Source of the DNA: a virus
Taxonomy: Duplodnaviria; Heunggongvirae; Uroviricota; Caudoviricetes
Strand: one strand, 5' to 3'
DNA: 38,196 nucleotides
Virus record (IMG/VR): IMGVR_UViG_3300029267_003506
The notes beneath the pieces were generated by a model. The model had not been told where the DNA came from. It saw only the letters and a program-made list of their open reading frames with translations, and searched no databases. Positions 1-30,344 of this stretch are shown piece by piece. Numbering within the stretch: the first letter of the stretch is position 1; the number at the start of each line of letters is the position of its first letter. Both the position numbers and the translations under genes were made by a program.

Positions 1-876
1 AGAAACGTTCTTATCCTCACAGTCTTGCTGAAGCCTGGATAACCAATATCGAACATTCCAACTGCCAATAGAGCGTCGAATGTTTTTACTCAATCGACGT
101 TTGAGTCTTGTGCCTTTTGTTATCCCCTTCAACTTCTCAACAACGACCAAAGAAGCATTGTCAGTAACGTCCCTGGCAACCTCATCCATCCGTTGTCTTA
201 ATGCTCTCGCTGCCTTTTGCTGTCCCTTACTCCCATGCCTGCAACGCTTGACTCTCTCAATCCTCTCCCTGATATCTGTTCCTAACCTTTCTCCCGTGGA
301 AAGCGTAGCAAGAGAATTTATCCCTGTATCAATTCCGACACACTTGTTGATCGCTTGCTTCAACCCTGTTTCAATTTCAAAACAGAATTGGACACACCTA
401 TCAGTGATGACGTAGCTGTTCAGGCGCACTCCTCGTTGAGATAAGCGATTGAATTGATCATGAAAACGAATAGGCAAATCTAATGAAATCTTTTCACCAA
501 TAGAAGCTAAGTGCAACCAAGCATCAAACTCTCTTGCGTGTTTTGCTGGCTGTAACTCAGCAATCGTGCTGGAGACAGACATTGATTTGCCTCTGTGTTT
601 CGGCTTTCTTGCTTTCTTACCATCTCTTTCTCTTGAAGCCTTGACCATTCCAATTGCTTCACGCGCTGCTACTTTTCTTAACCTGGCAGATAACCAAGTC
701 GTCGGTGAATTGACAATTGGCTTCAAAAGCTGACAACGTGCAGGACAGGATAACCAGAAAAGATCAATGAAGTGGTTAACGACTTTAGCATACTCACAAA
801 GAATGTTTCTCAGAGTTTCTCTCTTCTGTTCATTGGCAAACTTCAAAGAGCATTTGCTTGATCGCTTAATCTTCAC
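1..876 (-). CDS. tnpB: TnpB RNA-guided endonuclease (IS607 type), 3' end truncated by the window edge
   Basis: Not in the ORF track. Manual translation from GTG at 876 is open to position 1 and gives RuvC-I (CVGIDTGINSLATLS) and RuvC-II (LVVVEKL). It overlaps the tnpA stop. Confidence 0.92.
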   Translation of the reverse strand, partial: MKIKRSSKCSLKFANEQKRETLRNILCEYAKVVNHFIDLFWLSCPARCQLLKPIVNSPTTWLSARLRKVAAREAIGMVKASRERDGKKARKPKHRGKSMSVSSTIAELQPAKHAREFDAWLHLASIGEKISLDLPIRFHDQFNRLSQRGVRLNSYVITDRCVQFCFEIETGLKQAINKCVGIDTGINSLATLSTGERLGTDIRERIERVKRCRHGSKGQQKAARALRQRMDEVARDVTDNASLVVVEKLKGITKGTRLKRRLSKNIRRSIGSWNVRYWLSRLQQDCEDKNVS

Positions 877-1438
877 TTTCTGCTGCCTTTATCGCTCTTT
901 TTGCCCGATTCTTTGCTGACCTTCTACCATAAATTCTTGCACACATAGAAGTGACTACATCTGTGAAATCCTTTAAGAGATCAGAAGTCTCTTCCTCTTC
1001 ATTTATCACGATTATCCTCTTGCCAGCAGCATCAAGTGCTGCCTCAATGTAGTCAACGCCAAAGCGAGACAATCGATCTCGATGCTCAACAATGATAGTC
1101 GAGATAGATTTTGAAGAGAGAATCTTCAAAAGCTTTTTCCTCGATCCGTTAAGTCCAGATCCTATTTCCGTAATCTCCTGCGTAACCCTAAAACCCTTCT
1201 CCGAAGCGTAATCGCGGAGACGATTCATCTGACGCTCAAGATTATCTTTTTGATCACGTGAGGACACTCTTCCGTAAAGTACGACAAAATCACCAGAAGA
1301 TGGTTCTTCCGTAGGGTGTACCAATATGGTGCCTGTTGCGAGTTGTTGTGCTTCACAAGGCAATTTACCACTCTGGAACAGGCGGTGAGCCGTCCGATAA
1401 CTCAAACCATTCTGTTTCGCCCACTCTGAAAGTTTCAT
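866..1438 (-). CDS. tnpA: IS607 transposase TnpA (MerR-like HTH + serine recombinase)
   Basis: N-terminal MKLSEWAKQNGLSYRTAHR HTH, YGRVSS catalytic motif, IVEHRDRLSRFG and C-terminal CARIYGRRS. Confidence 0.95.
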   Translation of the reverse strand: MKLSEWAKQNGLSYRTAHRLFQSGKLPCEAQQLATGTILVHPTEEPSSGDFVVLYGRVSSRDQKDNLERQMNRLRDYASEKGFRVTQEITEIGSGLNGSRKKLLKILSSKSISTIIVEHRDRLSRFGVDYIEAALDAAGKRIIVINEEEETSDLLKDFTDVVTSMCARIYGRRSAKNRAKRAIKAAESED

Positions 1439-21130: not shown

Positions 21131-21727
21131 TTATGACCTGACCGGTGTAAACTCAGCCTGCAAAATGTGAGAAACACCTGGAAAATGCAACGCGGCAAAA
21201 CGCTCAATCGCAGCCACATCCCCAATGTGCTGAAAGGTCGTCGTGCGTAACTCCACGTCTACTCTGTATTTCTGGGCTGCTCTCACCGTCTCTGTAACGC
21301 GCTGAAGATACATCTCGTCGTCAATTGTCGTTCCTAAAACGTTACTAGCATTAGAGATACACTTCAGGTCCACGCTGAGGGCGTCCAGAATTCCCCGGGA
21401 CGCCACATTTTCGACGACATCAGGCATCATTCCGTTCGTGAAGACCTTAACCCTCAATGCGTGCTTTGTATGAGCCCTTTCGGCGGCGTCTACGAGTTTC
21501 TGACCCCAAAGGGTAGGTTCACCTCCCAGGAAGACCGCTGCTTCGTGCAGCGGCGTTATATGGGCGTCCAGCAACTCAATAGCGGTTCCTTTCGACTCTC
21601 CCTGCGTAATCTCTTCGTAGTTGTAGCACCCCCGGCAAGCAAGATTACAGCCAGAGCAAAAAAGCACGAGAGCCTGATAGTCTTCGTATTCCTGAAAACT
21701 GTCCAAAATCACCTGAACGATTTTCAT
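21131..21727 (-). CDS. nrdG: Anaerobic RNR activating enzyme (radical SAM)
   Basis: CSGCNLACRGCYN CxxxCxxC motif and FLGGEPT; directly downstream of nrdD. Confidence 0.92.
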   Translation of the reverse strand: MKIVQVILDSFQEYEDYQALVLFCSGCNLACRGCYNYEEITQGESKGTAIELLDAHITPLHEAAVFLGGEPTLWGQKLVDAAERAHTKHALRVKVFTNGMMPDVVENVASRGILDALSVDLKCISNASNVLGTTIDDEMYLQRVTETVRAAQKYRVDVELRTTTFQHIGDVAAIERFAALHFPGVSHILQAEFTPVRS

Positions 21728-22320
21728 GCTGATGCCAAGACCTCCTCAAACTTCCCGACTGCTTCAATCGCAATGGGCTCCTCTGGAGCCACGCCGCCAT
21801 TCGAGTAGAAAACCCGATTTGGATATTCGTAGCCACGGCGCACAGGATTCCAACTCCTAACTGGTGTCACGAATCCGACCACCCGCGTGTACTGCTGCTG
21901 GATAGGCTCGCCGCAGACGGGACAAATTTCCTTGCGCCCGATGCTGTAGTGTAATTTCGCGCACTCACTGTAGGCGTAGTTAACCGCGAAATACACAGTA
22001 CCACTATTCTTCGCATGCTCCATGATGCGCTTGAACTGCCGGGCTCCCAAGGGCTTCTCATCGTCCACGTTCATGTGAAGGATGGCACCCCCGCTTGTCA
22101 ACCCGTCAATGCGCCCCTGGATACGAAACCGGTCGTGAATGCTGGCTTCCTCAACCAGCGGAATGTACTGGTTCGAGTAGAGTTCAAATTCCCTCGGATT
22201 GAACCCCATGAGGCGGTCAATCTGAGCCAGCCGCACAGCCATTGACTCGGCTGGAATTTGCTCAATGTTATAGATTGTTTTTTCCTGTTTCCTGTTTGCG
22301 GTCGCTTTGACGAATTTCAC
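21724..22320 (-). CDS. nrdD: Class III RNR, C-terminal polypeptide (glycyl-radical domain)
   Basis: YNIEQIPAES, SGGAILH, Zn-site cysteines and YTRVVGF glycyl-radical loop. Candidate GTG start at 22320 with an AAAGGA RBS. Confidence 0.88.
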   Translation of the reverse strand: MKFVKATANRKQEKTIYNIEQIPAESMAVRLAQIDRLMGFNPREFELYSNQYIPLVEEASIHDRFRIQGRIDGLTSGGAILHMNVDDEKPLGARQFKRIMEHAKNSGTVYFAVNYAYSECAKLHYSIGRKEICPVCGEPIQQQYTRVVGFVTPVRSWNPVRRGYEYPNRVFYSNGGVAPEEPIAIEAVGKFEEVLASA

Positions 22321-23956
22321 AGGTTTTCCTTTCAAATCGAAGCATGCCGGCGTCAAAAATCCTGTAATAGCCGTTTTTCATCATATTCTCGCATTCAGAA
22401 AGACTCGGGTCATAGTCGTCCAGAATATGCGGCAGTTTGTGTTTCTGAAACCTAACCCGGCTTTGAAGTTTCCGGCTCCCTTTCCGGAAGTAGTAGTAGT
22501 TCGGTTGAGTCAGTCCACAATTCTGGAACCCAACCTTCTCGTATCCGCGCCCATCGAACAAGCGCACATCACAGTAACTAACAATCGATCCTTCTACTCT
22601 CTTCAGCAAGCGACTCAAACCACCAATGACCGACAATCCAGCCTTTGAACAAAACCTCAGCAATTCCCAATCAAAATCCTTCCTGTATCTCGCCTTGCCA
22701 AAGACGGCAACAGCAACGATTTCCCCACCGCGAAAAAGACCAAGCGCCAAGGAACCACCGATGCATGATCCTTGGATGTGGTTTTGTTCCAGAAACTCCA
22801 CCTCGTCTCTCCTGGGAACTTCTGCCACCTCACATTGCCTGGCATAAACGGAAACATTCTTACCGACAGCGGAACGAATCAGCGACTTGACACACTCAAA
22901 CCTGTCCGCCATTTCGCTGTCAAAAATCTGAATCAGCCTTATGCCTTTCTCCCGGAAAAACAGGTACTTCTCACGGTGGTATGACTTGTCTTTGAACAGG
23001 TCAGAATGCCAGTACGCCCCATGGTGTTCAATCCCCACGCTGCAGCCCGGGAGAAATACATCAATCTCGTGATATCTCGTCCCGTCGTAGTAAAATCTCC
23101 TGTTCCTCTCGGAGGCAATCCCCAGGTCCGAAACAACCTTCTCTATCTCATCTTCTGCCGCACTCGTGTATTTATGTTCTTGCGATGGACAAAACACCAA
23201 TTGAGCGACACAGCTATCCCCCTCGAACTCCAAACCGCACCGCAAGCATCTGTATTTGAAACCAGCCGTTGCCTCGATAAAAAAGGCTCTATCGAACAAC
23301 GCCTCAATTTGCTTCTGTCTCATCTGAATAAGGAAAAGTTCATACCGACTTCTTCTTGCCGCTTGTCTGAATCTTTCCTTCCAATCCTCCGTCATGGCGT
23401 AATGTTTAACACCACGGCGTTTCAGGTGCGTCTGTCTCTTTTTTTCCTCTATCTCTTCTCTTCTTCCTTTCATCCTTTCCTGAAACTCTTCCGTCTTGAA
23501 ATAGTTGTCAGCACCATACCTTCGGATCATCGCCTGTCTGTGCTTTTCTGTGCCGAACTGATGTTCCTCGCCAGACACCCTGATATTGGCGAGGCTTCTC
23601 TCTCTTGCCTCCTTACTCCTCGTCCTCCACGACTTCGAAATAGCCACCCTTCGCTTTTGTATCGCCTCTTCAGTAGATGTGCCGCTCACAATCTGCTTCG
23701 TTCTTATTCTCCGGTTCTCATCGTCGGACCAGAATTGCCCGGTTGCGCAAGAACAACTGCAAAATCTTCGGTATCCTTTTCCGAAGGAGATAAAGGTCGT
23801 CGGCGCACCGCAGGCTTGACAGATTCCCTCTCCCTGTTTCCGAAGACGCTGGTCGTAGTAGTCCACCGGGTCACAGTCGGGATGTTTTTGGCACAGGTGT
23901 TTCCTAACCCCGTCCTTGTTCTTGAATCCCGTTTTTCCACATATCTCGCACTTCAT
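22268..23956 (-). CDS. Free-standing Hef-like homing endonuclease (Zn fingers + PD-(D/E)XK-like + GNAT-like)
   Basis: CEICG...HLCQKH, EIDVFLPGCSVGIEHHGAYWHS...GIRLIQIF, ELLRFCS...GGLSRLL; sits between the two nrdD halves. Confidence 0.8.
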   Translation of the reverse strand: MKCEICGKTGFKNKDGVRKHLCQKHPDCDPVDYYDQRLRKQGEGICQACGAPTTFISFGKGYRRFCSCSCATGQFWSDDENRRIRTKQIVSGTSTEEAIQKRRVAISKSWRTRSKEARERSLANIRVSGEEHQFGTEKHRQAMIRRYGADNYFKTEEFQERMKGRREEIEEKKRQTHLKRRGVKHYAMTEDWKERFRQAARRSRYELFLIQMRQKQIEALFDRAFFIEATAGFKYRCLRCGLEFEGDSCVAQLVFCPSQEHKYTSAAEDEIEKVVSDLGIASERNRRFYYDGTRYHEIDVFLPGCSVGIEHHGAYWHSDLFKDKSYHREKYLFFREKGIRLIQIFDSEMADRFECVKSLIRSAVGKNVSVYARQCEVAEVPRRDEVEFLEQNHIQGSCIGGSLALGLFRGGEIVAVAVFGKARYRKDFDWELLRFCSKAGLSVIGGLSRLLKRVEGSIVSYCDVRLFDGRGYEKVGFQNCGLTQPNYYYFRKGSRKLQSRVRFQKHKLPHILDDYDPSLSECENMMKNGYYRIFDAGMLRFERKTCEIRQSDRKQETGKNNL

Positions 23957-24002
23957 GTGGCTTCCCCACCTACCTCGGTTTTCCACGGCAACACAAGGAA
24001 CC

Positions 24003-26888
24003 TCAAGCGATTCCCAAGAGGTAACTGTCCTGATTCTCCATGTACTCAGAAGCCGTCACCTTGGACACCCTGCCATTGGATACGTGTTTCACCGTCAACT
24101 CGTCGCTTGGCTCGAAATGCAGTACTTCCCCATCGTCAGTCACAATGCGTATGCGACCTTCTCTCCTTTCGTGTTTCTGCCACTCTGCGATGTGACGTTC
24201 GACGGTCTGGAGCACATTGGCAAGCGCTTGGATACCCTCCTCGCTTTTGATGTCGAGTCCTTTGTTCACCACATACTCGTAACCGCCTACAAAACCAATC
24301 GTGCTGTATTGGCGACGCAGGTCAATCCAGCCTGTCGTGTAGAGTGGCAAGTGACCCGTCTCAATGCGGTGTTGGATAAGTCGTCGATGGGAAACCAAAA
24401 TCTTGTGGAGAACTGCCAAGTCTTTTTCCAGGATATCCGGATCATCGCGTTCCAAAATGGCAATGCGGGGCAGGTTCAGCCCGGCTACTCTGTGGCTACC
24501 GATTGACAAACCGCCAACCCCGAACGAATTTTGGTACCCGTCGCTCGCTACCTTGTCGAACTCGGATTTCAGCCGGCAGCACGAGGAGAATGCATTGGGC
24601 TTTGATTGGAAAATGTTTGCCGTTGCCTTGGCGCAGTTGGCTTCGGCAGCCCAGTCAACAAATTCGGGGTCGATGTACTCCCCGTTTTCGTCAAGAGAAA
24701 TCGCCAAGGTCATAATGGGAAAAGTGAAAATGCCCTCTTCGCAGTTGATTTCCGCGTAATACTCAAAAAAGCGCCGCGATAACACCAAGACGCTATCCAG
24801 GTCCGGTTTGGTGCCATCCGGATAAGCATAGCCCCTAAACAACTCCGCCAAGAAGCCTTTGTCCATTACGCTGAGATTGGTAAAGGCACTTTGATTTCCG
24901 CGAAAAGGAAAGTTGAGAGAGAAAATCAAGTTTTGGAATTGGTTCTTGATCTTCCCCCACGTTTCTTTTCTATCCAGGTGCTTCGCGTAGTCTTCACCCA
25001 TCTCTTTCCGGTAAAACCAATCCAATGCCACAAAGAAATCCGGATAGCTAGCCGCGCCGAGAATCTGGTTGCTGATGTAGGCGGTCGACTGAATGAGAAG
25101 GGCAAAAAACGAGTCACTGCGCTTTGGAGGATTGATAGGCATATTACCGTCAAAAAATGCCATGCCACTAGCCAAGAGATTACGCAAATCAAAGGCAAAG
25201 CAGTTATGTTGCGTCATTCCGCAAGCATAGAAGGTGCCAGACTCCGTTGTGATGTCGTATACAAACCCAAGAACATCCTCACCAGAGGGAGTGACCTTCT
25301 GCGTTCCTGCATCCAATCGAAATGTCTTTGACACTTCATTCGTGCGCTCATTCGTGTCCAGACTGCTGTTGAGCCCGCCCTCTCGCGCAAAAGAGGATAA
25401 CTTCACAGATGCGTCAATCATGTCCTCATTAGGCTGAAATGAAAGTCCGAACAAGAATGTAACCCCACCCTTACCATGTCCCGAACTTGATTCGCCAATC
25501 TCCTCGACACTCTTATGATTGAAGACACCCATTGCCGCCAGCACATCAGACAATTGGTTCACAATTGCGTATGCCGACATACGAAGGTTCACAGACCCCC
25601 GAGTGACAATGCCGTCACTGTCCACCAGTCCCGCGACATATGCGCTGACCGATTCTGCGTCCCAATCCAGCACGTTATTCGGAAGGGACTTGGCATATGA
25701 CGATTCGTAGCCAACACCAAAAACCTTCGCAAGCAGCATCCTGAAATGATTTGAGTTGAAGACGATCTGCCTGTCGTCCCGCGTCCTTACGGCACACTCA
25801 GGGAACAACCTTGTCACCACTTCGTAAATCTTTGTCTCGACGATGTTCTTCTGATAGATGTGGATGTTTCCGCGAAGTTCATCCACTTTGATAGCAACCT
25901 CTTCGCCGGTAAGATTCTTTGAGCCAGAGTAGAACTTGTGCCGCCCTACTGAACCATCTCCAGCGATAAAGCCCATCAAATACGCCATGTCAGCAGGAAC
26001 ATCGACAATAGAACGTAATTGCAGTGTATTCTCGCTTCCCCTGATTGTATCCCCGGCGACCAGGTCCTCCGCATTCTTCTCTGACCCGTCTTCCATGATA
26101 ACCGGATGATCGTCTGTCACGAAAGCCATGTCGCCATTTTTTGTTTGATAAATGACATAGCCACGTTCATTCTGGTGACGAAGTATTCTCTTGAGTACCA
26201 CCCACTCGCCATTTCCATCGAGTACTTCCACACGGTGCCGCTGCAAAACGGATTCTGATGCTTTTCCGCTGAGCACTATTTTCTTCCTGTCGCTGCCCAC
26301 CGCAACACGATGAAAATCCAGTTCCTTGTAAACACTTGTCATGTTGATTGTTTCACGGTCGGGATGGTGTTCGGCAAACTCTTCATACTCTTCAAACAAC
26401 GCCTTCATGGTCAGAAGGCGAGTTGGACCACCATTTACGCGCACTATCACAGGAGTCTGCTGATAGTACGAATACGGCATTGAGTAGTTTACGAGGTCAT
26501 TGACGAAAAGTTCGCCGTTGACTACCTTCTCCAGCGCCTCCTCCGCAGCGTCATGACCATAGAAACGCTTGACCCACTTGAAAAGAAGATAAAGGCTGTT
26601 CAACTTCATTAACGCTTTGTTCGCCTCGTAGTTGTACTGCATGATGTTTTTTTCGGTGACATTCGCATTTCCATCTACGCTCACATCCGCCACACTTACC
26701 GTCGCGCTCTTGAAAAACCGTTTGCTGAACTTAACCAGGTCCATGTGCTCGCCGGCAATGCCCTGAATTGCAAATATCTTGTCGCCGTATTTTTCCTCCA
26801 GTGCTTCCATGATGCCCACAAAGTCGTTCGAAAATGATTGCTTCACGTGCCATCCGCGACGTACCGGCATCCCTTCGCCTCCAGTCAA
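24003..26888 (-). CDS. nrdD: Class III RNR, N-terminal polypeptide with intein
   Basis: FVNDL...PY/CFAFDL, NQILGAASYPD, FPFRGNQSAFTN, FTFPIMT, FSSCCRL and GSHRVAGLNLPR motifs. The true start may be at 26870 or further downstream. Confidence 0.92.
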   Translation of the reverse strand: MTGGEGMPVRRGWHVKQSFSNDFVGIMEALEEKYGDKIFAIQGIAGEHMDLVKFSKRFFKSATVSVADVSVDGNANVTEKNIMQYNYEANKALMKLNSLYLLFKWVKRFYGHDAAEEALEKVVNGELFVNDLVNYSMPYSYYQQTPVIVRVNGGPTRLLTMKALFEEYEEFAEHHPDRETINMTSVYKELDFHRVAVGSDRKKIVLSGKASESVLQRHRVEVLDGNGEWVVLKRILRHQNERGYVIYQTKNGDMAFVTDDHPVIMEDGSEKNAEDLVAGDTIRGSENTLQLRSIVDVPADMAYLMGFIAGDGSVGRHKFYSGSKNLTGEEVAIKVDELRGNIHIYQKNIVETKIYEVVTRLFPECAVRTRDDRQIVFNSNHFRMLLAKVFGVGYESSYAKSLPNNVLDWDAESVSAYVAGLVDSDGIVTRGSVNLRMSAYAIVNQLSDVLAAMGVFNHKSVEEIGESSSGHGKGGVTFLFGLSFQPNEDMIDASVKLSSFAREGGLNSSLDTNERTNEVSKTFRLDAGTQKVTPSGEDVLGFVYDITTESGTFYACGMTQHNCFAFDLRNLLASGMAFFDGNMPINPPKRSDSFFALLIQSTAYISNQILGAASYPDFFVALDWFYRKEMGEDYAKHLDRKETWGKIKNQFQNLIFSLNFPFRGNQSAFTNLSVMDKGFLAELFRGYAYPDGTKPDLDSVLVLSRRFFEYYAEINCEEGIFTFPIMTLAISLDENGEYIDPEFVDWAAEANCAKATANIFQSKPNAFSSCCRLKSEFDKVASDGYQNSFGVGGLSIGSHRVAGLNLPRIAILERDDPDILEKDLAVLHKILVSHRRLIQHRIETGHLPLYTTGWIDLRRQYSTIGFVGGYEYVVNKGLDIKSEEGIQALANVLQTVERHIAEWQKHERREGRIRIVTDDGEVLHFEPSDELTVKHVSNGRVSKVTASEYMENQDSYLLGIA
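25203..26471 (-). mobile_element. LAGLIDADG intein (423 aa) in NrdD
   Basis: Starts at Ser (SYYQQTPVIV), block B TDDH, AYLMGFIAGDG and AYVAGLVDSDG motifs, ends VYDITT...QHN followed by Cys. Confidence 0.92.
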
Positions 26889-27150
26889 CTATGAGTCCCT
26901 GGAACTCCCGCTCAATCGTAGAGCGAATCCGAAATATCCGTTGCATCCCTCCGGTGTGATCATTTATCAGCCTACTCACAGGAGGGTATCAAAGAAATAT
27001 AGGAACCAATGACACCTATTCGCATTTCCCGGTCCCTAAATGGCAAAAAAAGACATGACTCACCCTCCGCACGTCCTTACCATTCCTAGTTATACGTTCG
27101 TCGCCATCTTTTTTGTGAAAATCTAGGAAGAAAGATGTAGAATCGAAACC

Positions 27151-27489
27151 ATGAACGAAAACACGCAACCACCTGACAGTCGCAAACAAGCGCTTATCGA
27201 CGCTGTCATCGGGTATGGCGTTTTCTTTTCAACGATAGGTGAATACAAACTGCTGCGCCGGAAATACCCAGGCTTACCGGATGAGGAATCCATAAGCCTG
27301 GTCTTCGCGCACTTTTCTGAATTCCGCGACGCATACGTTCTCAGGTCAGTCAGAAACAGGCGTCCGACCCAGGGGATTCAAATCACCCCTGTTCGGACTA
27401 GCCTGGACAAAATGCAACCTGAAGAAGTGAAAACGGTCGTGAAAAAACGTAGGCAAGAATTGTTCGGGAAGAAACGCCGCCTACGGTAG
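27151..27489 (+). CDS. Hypothetical protein; the only clear plus-strand gene
   Basis: 112 aa; TAGAAT -10 box 7 nt before the ATG suggests a leaderless transcript. Confidence 0.6.
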   Translation: MNENTQPPDSRKQALIDAVIGYGVFFSTIGEYKLLRRKYPGLPDEESISLVFAHFSEFRDAYVLRSVRNRRPTQGIQITPVRTSLDKMQPEEVKTVVKKRRQELFGKKRRLR

Positions 27490-27490
27490 G

Positions 27491-27748
27491 TTAATCCTCT
27501 TCCTTCTCGGCATCCCAACCCTTGTCAACTTCGTCGAAAAACTTCTTCTTCTGCTCGGCGTTCAGCTCCGAAGGGCTATTTACCTTGTATTTCCGCAGTT
27601 TGCCTTCGAAAAACTCACGGTATTTCTTCTGCTTTGGAGTCATTTCGCCGGCGGTGTGGTCGGTAAGGCGATGACGGGCAGACTTCTCGCTCGCCGTTAG
27701 TTCTTTTGCAAGCGCCAGCAACTCGCGCGCTACCTTCTTCCTATCCAT
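27491..27748 (-). CDS. Small head/core-type protein
   Basis: N-terminal MDRKKVARELLALAKEL; C-terminal YREFF...SPSEL...KKKFFDEVDKGW motif, recalled from large-phage head proteins. Confidence 0.7.
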   Translation of the reverse strand: MDRKKVARELLALAKELTASEKSARHRLTDHTAGEMTPKQKKYREFFEGKLRKYKVNSPSELNAEQKKKFFDEVDKGWDAEKEED

Positions 27749-27757
27749 CGTGCTCTC

Positions 27758-28447
27758 CTAGTGCCAAACGCTGAAATGGAGTTCGTACTTGATTTTGTTC
27801 TTCTTGAGCCAATCCGGAAACGCGCCTAGACTCACATTACTGAGGAGGTTAGGGTCGGCGCGAAGCATTTTGTAGAGTTTCCTGGCCGACGCGGGGCTTG
27901 TTGAATCAATGTCGGTGTAGCTCGGGTCCATGTCCTGAGGTCCACTGTCGCCGTGATACTCGCGGACACCAAAGTTCGTCCATGAACTCGTAAACTCGAA
28001 ATCTTTGCCCTTCACGGTAATGGGCTTCGCATCCTCCGGCTCGACCTTCAGGTAATGCACCTGCTCTTCGCCCATGTGTGCCCAGTGGCGTGTCTTGAGA
28101 CCTTCCCTTTCCCACTTCGTCAAAACATCGTTAACAGCCTTTTCCATCCCGCGCTTAGCCTGGTCATAGGTGGAAGATTTCCCAACCTTACCAGCGCGCA
28201 TCAGATTTTCGATGATAAGATCATTGGCACCGTCGCGCGTTTCGACACCCGAGCGAATCCCGGGCCAAACACTGACCCGGAAAACGCGCAGTTTCTTTTT
28301 CCCTTTCGCCGGGAGTTCGGTTATGCGCAGGTTGAAGTTATTCCACTCGATACGACAACCGTTGCCGACAATTTTCTCGTCCCAACGAGAGGTCGTAATC
28401 AGGCGCGCCACCCTCAGTAGTTCACCAGCAATACAGCGGTTGTCCAT
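27758..28447 (-). CDS. Hypothetical internal-head-type protein
   Basis: Start reset to MDNRCIAGELLRVARLI (28447), the same N-terminal motif as its neighbour. Confidence 0.7.
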   Translation of the reverse strand: MDNRCIAGELLRVARLITTSRWDEKIVGNGCRIEWNNFNLRITELPAKGKKKLRVFRVSVWPGIRSGVETRDGANDLIIENLMRAGKVGKSSTYDQAKRGMEKAVNDVLTKWEREGLKTRHWAHMGEEQVHYLKVEPEDAKPITVKGKDFEFTSSWTNFGVREYHGDSGPQDMDPSYTDIDSTSPASARKLYKMLRADPNLLSNVSLGAFPDWLKKNKIKYELHFSVWH

Positions 28448-28493
28448 CTGTTTTCCTCTCCGGTTCTCCCTCAATCTCGTCAAAAAAACCTTG

Positions 28494-28739
28494 TTAGGCT
28501 CTTCCCGGCGTGGAATCAAGCGCCGTGTCGTTCCAGTTGCAGATGACGCCACAGTTTGATACTACAACGCTGCCGGCTTGAGCCTTGATTACGCTACCGC
28601 CAGCCACGCGAATGGTCCTGGTCTCGTCCATCACGCGTATCTGTCCCTCGTAAGCAGCCTCCTCGATGAAACATTGACCGCTGTCCGAACCCACTGCCGC
28701 CGTGGGCATCTGATTGCTCGGCGTGTTGCTGAGTTGCAT
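28494..28739 (-). CDS. Hypothetical protein (81 aa)
   Basis: ATG at 28739 with an AAGGAG RBS; promoter-like motif 45 nt upstream. Confidence 0.6.
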   Translation of the reverse strand: MQLSNTPSNQMPTAAVGSDSGQCFIEEAAYEGQIRVMDETRTIRVAGGSVIKAQAGSVVVSNCGVICNWNDTALDSTPGRA

Positions 28740-28862
28740 GGCTCTCTCCTTGCCAAAAATAGTTGACTTCACCCAGATGACTATATCAACAAATTATCAA
28801 GGACAAAACCTGCTGAAGCCCGAGAAAAAGCAAAACGAACCCGGATTTTCTATCGCCGCACG

Positions 28863-29282
28863 TTACTTCAGGCTTAACTTGACTTCTCTTGCAGGTTTAC
28901 GACTTCTTGTAGGAATGCCATGTTTCTTCCGATGGTATGCAACTCCCTCCCCGGTGAGCCCGTACATCGCGCCTATTTTACCGTCGCTCAGTTTTCCAAT
29001 CTCGTACTTTGTGACCTGCCAACTATGTCACAGGAAGTTTAGTCGGCTCGGGCGGCATTTGTTGTCTGCTCATGGCATCTCAAAGGGAGAGTACCTGAAC
29101 AGATTCCCGGCGGCGAAAACCATCAGCCAAAGAGACAGCAATCGGGTGAGGGATGAAAACAGGAGAAAACCAAGGAGAAGAAAGAGAAAGCCGGGGGTCG
29201 AAGGAATGGACCAGTAAGCAAGGTGCAACGCCGCATCGCCCGCGTCGTAAATCTCGCCGCATTTGTGACACTTCTTTGTCAC
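28863..29282 (-). pseudogene. Zn-finger (MucR-like)/HTH gene disrupted by an internal inversion
   Basis: The start and the HTH end lie on the minus strand and the Zn finger on the plus strand. Flipping 29005-29216 gives one 139-aa ORF. Confidence 0.7.
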
Positions 29283-29420
29283 GCGCCTCGCTCCTTAAGA
29301 GTCCATGGGCACTATACAATCTTTTCGGCTCCTGGCAAGACATTCCCAAGAACTTTTGGTTACCTATTTGGTATTCGATAACATTGAAGCAAGACTAGAT
29401 TGGGTGCGTTGATCCAAAGA

Positions 29421-29451
29421 AAAAGCCCCTGGGAAAATCTCCCAGGGGCTT
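29421..29451 (-). terminator. Intrinsic terminator after the major capsid gene
   Basis: AGCCCCTGGGA-GATTT-TCCCAGGGGCT followed by TTTTCTTT. Confidence 0.9.
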
Positions 29452-29483
29452 ATGATGGGTTGGCGTTACCGAACCAGCGCGTA

Positions 29484-30344
29484 TCAGGTACGGGTGATGT
29501 TCAGCACCTGCAGCGCGTAGGGGTTGTAGCAGCCGATGCCGATGTTCTCGAACACCGAGAAGCCAATCAGGCGGTTCTTCGGGTCGTCTGCACTGAGGAC
29601 GGTAAGTTCCGTCCTCACTGGAATGCGACCGAAGAATTCGGGCTCGCCACAAACATACACGGTACCCTCGGGGACAACGCGCGACACAATCAACTTCGCG
29701 CCCCAGACGGTAGCCATGAGACCGGTCTTGAGCAACTGAGCCTGCGTCTCAATGTCCAGGGTGTCGCGGTCCCACTTGCGCAGGTCGGCGTAGTCCTTGG
29801 CGTTCAGGAAGACGTTCGCGACACGCATGTCGGTACGCTCCACGTTCGCAAAGGCATCAGCCAGGGCGTTCGCTGTCAGGTTGCCCGTGACAGGAATTGC
29901 CGGGTTCGGGTTGGTCGGGTCAGCGGCGAGCGCATCCATGACCGCGAAAACCTTGCGGTCTTCCTCGGCTTGAATCTCGCTCTTCGCCAGGTCAATGCTC
30001 CGCTCGATCAGGTCGAAACGACGAGCCTTGACCTCGGTGAGTTGAATTTCCGGGTTCGAGGCAATCTCGAACAACGGAAACATCACGCGCTTCGGCTTCT
30101 GCACCGCGATGATGTTCAGCCCTTCCTCACCCACGACGTAGGCCGTCACGTTCGGGTCCTTGTCGTAGAGCGGAAGCGCGCCATCGGGCAATTGTTCCAC
30201 GTAGAACGCTTTGCGTCCCACACTGGAGTAGTCACGACGACGACGCAGAGGCTGAATCATCGACGCTGCCAGACGCTGGCGACCAGCCGCAGTCCGGATG
30301 AACTGCGAGATGATTTCCTGTTTGGTCTGATTATCCAGAGCCAT
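29484..30344 (-). CDS. Major capsid protein (HK97-fold)
   Basis: 286 aa after the scaffold and decoration genes; strong RBS, biased codon usage, terminator; VRTELTVLSADDP...IGFSVFENIG C-terminus. Confidence 0.85.
   Translation of the reverse strand: MALDNQTKQEIISQFIRTAAGRQRLAASMIQPLRRRRDYSSVGRKAFYVEQLPDGALPLYDKDPNVTAYVVGEEGLNIIAVQKPKRVMFPLFEIASNPEIQLTEVKARRFDLIERSIDLAKSEIQAEEDRKVFAVMDALAADPTNPNPAIPVTGNLTANALADAFANVERTDMRVANVFLNAKDYADLRKWDRDTLDIETQAQLLKTGLMATVWGAKLIVSRVVPEGTVYVCGEPEFFGRIPVRTELTVLSADDPKNRLIGFSVFENIGIGCYNPYALQVLNITRT

Follow-up and report, generated by a model that had tools for sequence, protein, structure and literature searches.

How the middle of a phage gene came to lie back to front is the question raised by a locus in the window, the 38,196-nucleotide stretch of DNA that was analysed. 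The window is phage DNA that carries a capsid gene, nrdD, nrdG, an HNH gene and an IS607-type pair. In the stretch that separates the capsid gene from nrdD, a small DNA-binding gene is broken, its 212-base central piece (29005–29216) being reversed. The original prediction, made from the sequence alone, left three readings side by side: a phase-variable switch, a one-off inactivation and an assembly artefact.

Layout of the broken gene

The coordinates and peptides on which the original prediction was built are all present in the sequence, as is a minus-strand start with a ribosome-binding site that leads into hydrophobic antisense sequence. The features of the locus are as follows.

28863–29004, minus strand: C-terminal piece with a helix-turn-helix (HTH) module and the stop codon; its own start is absent
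29005–29216, plus strand: inverted segment of 212 bp with a Ros/MucR-type zinc finger (C-x2-C-x9-H-x4-H) and a basic linker, on the strand opposite to its own gene
29005–29008: left 4-bp microhomology, TACT, seen in the sequence
29213–29216: right 4-bp microhomology, AGTA, seen in the sequence
29217–29282, minus strand: N-terminal piece of 22 codons with a GTG start; first finger Cys-x2-Cys-x11-His without a fourth ligand
29070–29282, minus strand: present-day scrambled 70-aa ORF, with 23 genuine residues followed by hydrophobic antisense read-through
29292–29338, minus strand: expression signals of the broken gene, a sigma-70-like promoter match (29338–29311, consensus match only) and AAGGAG (29292–29297)
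29423–29451, minus strand: intrinsic-terminator-like hairpin after the capsid gene, seen in the sequence
29484–30344, minus strand: major capsid protein gene (phrog_2522, 6.7e-54; cluster members are named HK97 family major capsid protein), which marks a variable slot

The broken gene starts with the GTG at 29280–29282 on the minus strand, separated from the AAGGAG by a spacer of 9 nt. The 23 genuine residues of the scrambled ORF comprise the 22 of the N-terminal piece and a junction Tyr; past 29217 the frame is antisense read-through until a stop at 29070. On the plus strand, the finger piece (29005–29214) encodes 70 aa with no credible start, and its TAA (29215–29217) straddles the right junction and is created by it, as had been predicted. 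The HTH piece (28866–29003, minus strand) encodes 46 aa, likewise without a start, and ends with the stop at 28863–28865. All three pieces are free of stop codons and frameshifts.

When 29005–29216 was reverse-complemented in silico, these start-less or stop-less pieces became a single 139-codon frame on the minus strand. The same frame was obtained from any breakpoint pair within the 4-bp repeat TACT/AGTA. The claim that inversion restores both junctions in frame was thereby confirmed, and it is further borne out by the collinearity with homologues described below. Frame compatibility alone, with breakpoints chosen freely, is a coincidence of about 1 in 3 and is weak evidence, so the weight of the argument rests on the homologues. 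The short inverted microhomology (4 bp) sits exactly at both breakpoints and exceeds chance, given that random breakpoint pairs with this spacing in the window would share an inverted microhomology of at least 4 bp in 1.5% of cases (P = 0.015). At the breakpoints, a search for an inverted repeat longer than 4 bp, for a repeat pair with arms at both and for an extended imperfect repeat found none.

The antisense of the Lys/Arg-rich linker (29070–29216, minus strand) reads as a strongly hydrophobic tail, possibly with one or two membrane-spanning stretches. With the promoter-like site and ribosome-binding site intact upstream, the scrambled product could be produced and inserted into a membrane.

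Homologues and the identity of the gene

A set of 79 related loci was fetched by way of the adjacent capsid protein and searched by tblastn with the rebuilt 139-codon protein. Homologues of the restored protein were found as single frames in five related phages, with E-values of 6e-15 to 2e-11 that refer to this small database of 79 loci. Single HSPs cover residues 9–128/132 and cross both junctions in L059, L062, L030 and L049, while in L016 the HSP covers residues 24–128 and crosses the right junction. The relatives are distant, with an identity of about 35%. Multiple and pairwise alignments give the same order in one frame, namely the finger ('DFVTCKLC...'), the basic linker ('RGRKPERD') and the HTH ('LY....LSDAKIG..YGMTGEGIAYQRKKHGI'). 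A conserved Tyr and the spacing 'Y-x4-LSD-x-KIG' continue uninterrupted across the right junction and are collinear with the homologues. The N-terminal piece and the finger together match an internal two-finger unit of L014, L030 and L010 ('C[DH]KCGEWY....AALHL.EC ... DYV.CPEC...RLG.HL'); the first finger is identical to this unit at 11 of 17 positions, with identical spacing. The HTH piece is 54–71% identical over 26–31 aa to the HTH of L008, L009, L017, L050 and L071. From these related phages, the rebuilt order appears to be the ancestral arrangement; the un-flipped ancestor is reconstructed rather than observed.

The fit to the homologues has a gap at either junction. Precisely at the left junction the rebuilt protein lacks about 14 aa, the fourth zinc ligand (the final Cys) among them, and at the right junction HTH helix 1 is shorter by about 2–6 aa. 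These gaps suggest that something more complex than a clean inversion may have taken place, or that the gene may have been shortened beforehand.

A close relative of this gene was not found, the best matches having about 35–46% identity. Peptide-pattern scans of viral, metagenome and genome contigs returned none, nor did scans of viral contigs for an exact 30-mer and for a degenerate HTH pattern, or of metagenome contigs for the HTH pattern. A tblastn search of deposited phages produced only weak finger matches and one HTH match, the latter in LR745208.1. A paralogue of the finger/HTH module was sought elsewhere in the window and none was found.

The finger piece scores 19.6 bits against PF05443, below the Pfam cut-off of 25.4 bits, and has the ligand pattern of the family; full-length homologues score 37–75 bits and pass the cut-off. 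In PHROG terms, the finger piece matches phrog_22215 (3e-07) and the HTH piece matches phrog_12058. An exhaustive search of 1.84 billion representatives located the finger module in 149 proteins, with 1–7 copies each (best E 1.5e-18, at most about 50% identity), and single-module proteins of the family exist (P0100, 73 aa).

The rebuilt protein matches the tail end of mosaic, homing-endonuclease-like genes of 500–780 aa, a C-terminal DNA-binding region made up of a Ros/MucR-type zinc finger, a basic linker and an HTH. The homologous frames of L059, L062, L030, L049 and L016 measure 719–781 codons from stop to stop and lie directly downstream of the capsid gene. They combine several ROS_MUCR fingers, DUF7487 and a region matching phrog_3339 'homing endonuclease', and some add an N6 DNA-methylase domain. 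A 1229-aa ORF of the same kind occupies the same position in LR745208.1, a 485-kb uncultured phage. Pfam and PHROG searches of the three pieces identified no nuclease family match in any of them, and a PDB sequence search with the putative nuclease region of the homologues gave no match. Judged by its domain content, the window copy is probably a nuclease-less remnant of a free-standing homing-endonuclease-like gene, and the label of 'regulator' in the original prediction is probably wrong. Since the nuclease domain is absent and the first finger lacks its fourth zinc ligand, the gene was probably a remnant, already decaying, before the flip.

The slot between the capsid gene and nrdD

Among those related loci whose downstream flank is long enough, about half hold a homing-endonuclease-like gene in the slot that follows the capsid gene. 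In L004, whose capsid protein is 94% identical, the slot is empty and the capsid–nrdD spacer is 650 bp of non-coding DNA, versus about 2.6 kb in the window. L076 retains a derailed, decayed HTH remnant and L077 has the same short tblastn match there. A second type of slot gene joins an N-terminal HTH, LAGLIDADG_2 (94.6 bits) and a methylase; L009 is among the carriers of the LAGLIDADG_2 domain. Sporadic presence and absence at a fixed site among close relatives, a pattern by which a homing endonuclease gene is recognised, is therefore found here. Given this varied presence, the empty slot of L004 and the remnants in L076 and L077, the slot is a hot spot in which mobile and mosaic genes of the homing-endonuclease-like kind occur in every stage of decay.

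Several further observations were made in and around the slot. Within 26889–29483 of the window, small ORFs lie next to the broken gene at 28494–28772, 27758–28552 and 27491–27748; none of them has a homologue among the 79 related loci, and the entire 2.6-kb capsid–nrdD spacer seems to be specific to this phage lineage. In L008, L009, L017, L050, L074, L075 and L080, ORFs of about 670 aa past the capsid gene (e.g., L009:5048-7066) fuse a LAGLIDADG_2 endonuclease to an N6 DNA-methylase; an N-terminal HTH was also detected in those of L008, L009, L017 and L050. Another type of fusion (L049, L016, L035 and L012) has a phrog_3339-like nuclease region and a methylase, with zinc fingers and a C-terminal HTH in L049, L016 and L035. 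Such fusions of endonuclease and methylase, placed in a homing-gene slot, may be selfish genes that protect themselves. In L059, L062, L076, L077 and L078, inserts of 1–3 kb with one or two LAGLIDADG-like regions (intron- or intein-type) break up the capsid gene itself, and as a result tblastn matches the capsid protein in separate parts.

On the other side of the slot, the nrdD gene of the window (21724–26888) has two extra blocks of about 1.26 kb and 1.86 kb compared to that of L004, which has neither. The 1.26-kb block (about 25202–26466) has a LAGLIDADG_3 match and the 1.86-kb block contains a free-standing endonuclease gene of 572 aa (22268–23986; phrog_3339, 1e-102). The endonuclease that splits nrdD is unrelated to the module of the broken gene. 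At the start of the window (1–1438), and inside phage DNA, the IS607-type pair consists of a Resolvase-domain protein and a TnpB/OrfB_IS605-like ORF.

Origin of the inversion and comparison with known systems

The exact scrambled 70-aa ORF is present twice in a collection of 15 billion proteins, the two entries differing solely in M versus V as first residue. Logan and ENA are the sources of one (two contigs, the longest of 116,700 bases) and JGI/IMG is that of the other (four contigs, the longest of 132,554 bases); the samples behind the six contigs may overlap. The un-flipped 139-aa allele was absent from a word search among longer proteins and from the exhaustive search of representatives. 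Among these ORF-level records of the protein collections, only the flipped orientation occurs, although a minority un-flipped population may exist. Since neither stops nor frameshifts have arisen in the three pieces, and the scrambled ORFs on record are identical, the event was probably recent.

The likely explanation is a fixed, one-off, microhomology-mediated inversion of 212 bp in a nuclease-less, decaying homing-endonuclease-like remnant in the capsid–nrdD slot. The ancestor would have been a small remnant in which a first zinc finger, only partial, was followed by one finger of the Ros/MucR type, a basic linker and an HTH. A single illegitimate event, either recombination or replication template switching, would have flipped the central 212 bp between TACT and AGTA; the anatomy of the junctions, from which this mechanism is read, is what would be left if short inverted repeats had undergone one reciprocal exchange or a switch of replication template. 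From the promoter-like site, ribosome-binding site and start, all of them intact, a 70-aa nonsense product would now be expressed, and translation would no longer join the finger to the HTH. The inversion would be recent, fixed in the sequenced population and presumably irreversible. The one-off inactivation of the original prediction is accordingly the reading that gains support, from a repeat of only 4 bp, a record of only the flipped form and the ancestral order in relatives.

Four other accounts may be weighed against this one. An unlikely one is a more complex rearrangement, in which either the inversion was accompanied by a deletion at each junction or a patch was copied in, reversed, from a different member of the gene family. 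The residues missing at each junction, among them the fourth zinc ligand, are what such an event would leave, but the homologues are only about 35% identical and vary in linker length, so the gaps may predate the event. A perfect 4-bp repeat at both ends with an exact in-frame fit is most simply one reciprocal exchange, and the window offers no paralogue as a donor. An assembly or library artefact, in which the true genome has the un-flipped 139-codon gene, is distinctly unlikely. If a real gene had been misjoined locally, just such a precise in-frame restoration would be expected; however, the flipped ORF was recovered by several assemblies and pipelines (JGI/IMG, ENA and Logan re-assemblies) in contigs of different lengths, which makes an artefact hard to sustain. 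A 4-base repeat is also far below any assembler k-mer, so graph ambiguity is unable to flip the segment, two reciprocal chimeric junctions would be required, the locus is mid-contig and far from the ends, and the un-flipped allele is missing from the protein collections searched. The pieces might instead be separate small genes, with a stand-alone 68-aa MucR-type finger protein on the plus strand (GTG at 29011) between two minus-strand fragments. Single-module proteins such as P0100 and the GTG at 29011–29013 immediately ahead of the finger speak for this arrangement, but it is very unlikely. The plus strand has neither a Shine-Dalgarno sequence nor a promoter-like site, the finger ORF owes its stop codon to the junction, and the start-less HTH piece is clearly homologous to coding HTHs. 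Moreover, a single frame runs through finger, linker and HTH without a break in the five homologues, and public gene calls picked the 70-aa ORF on the minus strand.

The phase-variable switch remains to be considered. As a programmed, reversible intragenic inverton that toggles a DNA-binding protein, with the IS607-type serine recombinase (866–1438) as one candidate enzyme, it is highly improbable. Both junctions are in frame, the promoter-like site, ribosome-binding site and start are intact, the absence of stops in the three pieces would also be consistent with selection that keeps the state reversible, the window codes for a serine recombinase, and bacterial intragenic invertons that cause premature stops are known (PMC10028968). 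Against this, the inverted repeat is just 4 bp compared to the roughly 10 bp or more of a recombinase site, with no such site flanking the segment, and an invertase-type recombinase is absent nearby. The sole recombinase in the window lies about 27.5 kb from the flipped segment and is of the transposon type: it has an N-terminal extension, not the C-terminal HTH of an invertase, and forms a pair with a TnpB-like ORF, the arrangement of an IS607 transposon. A single orientation has been recorded, the rebuilt protein looks defective with its nuclease absent and its first finger broken, and a lytic-type phage would have little obvious use for a phase-varying selfish-gene remnant. A variant in which a phage-encoded recombinase or replication-coupled template switching toggles the zinc-finger/HTH protein in the phage population on a minimal 4-bp core is less probable still. 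If it were true, the unbroken frames of the three pieces would reflect selection for reversibility.

A fixed, one-off inversion has a counterpart in the E. coli inversions between short inverted repeats that Schofield and colleagues reportedly described in 1992. The present case resembles such events in being a short in-situ flip that is bounded by inverted microhomology, has no recombinase site and disrupts a gene, with no bases visibly lost or gained at the junctions. It is unlike the typical examples in that 4 bp is at the short end for a 212-bp segment and the setting is a phage selfish-gene remnant. For template switching, a four-point model has been presented (Loytynoja & Goldman 2017, PMC5453318). 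The locus would serve as a clean, well-bounded natural case of a microhomology-mediated micro-inversion fixed in a phage genome. With respect to annotation, the public 70-aa "hypothetical protein" would be the product of a scrambled pseudogene.

In Chanin et al., 'Intragenic DNA inversions expand bacterial coding capacity' (PMC10028968), intragenic invertons are presented as enzyme-mediated and reversible, with both orientations in reads; they were called from inverted repeats found by einverted, and the one in thiC has an 11-nt repeat. As in these invertons, the inversion here stays entirely within a coding sequence, and in the flipped state translation ends early or yields a recoded product. 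The 4-bp repeat, the lack of an invertase nearby and the single orientation on record set it apart.

The T4 seg and mob genes are free-standing phage homing endonuclease genes. The slot genes are similar to genes of this kind in their intergenic position by a highly conserved (capsid) gene, their variable presence, their mosaic domains and their decayed remnants. The window copy differs by the absence of a nuclease domain, and homing activity and a target site are putative for every member. Homing endonuclease genes are said to pass through a cycle of invasion, decay and loss, as put forward by Goddard and Burt in 1999, and the inversion would illustrate one route by which selfish homing-type genes decay after nuclease loss. 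More broadly, phages of this group have a hot spot past the capsid gene, where mosaic genes with zinc-finger, nuclease, methylase and HTH parts are found. The finger itself shares with the Ros/MucR family (PF05443) the ligand spacing C-x2-C-x9-H-x4-H followed by a 'HG.s..eY...FP.A' helix. In contrast to the alphaproteobacterial Ros/MucR regulators, with a score that falls short of the family cut-off, it belongs to a phage-borne, tandemly repeated module that forms a DNA-binding arm.
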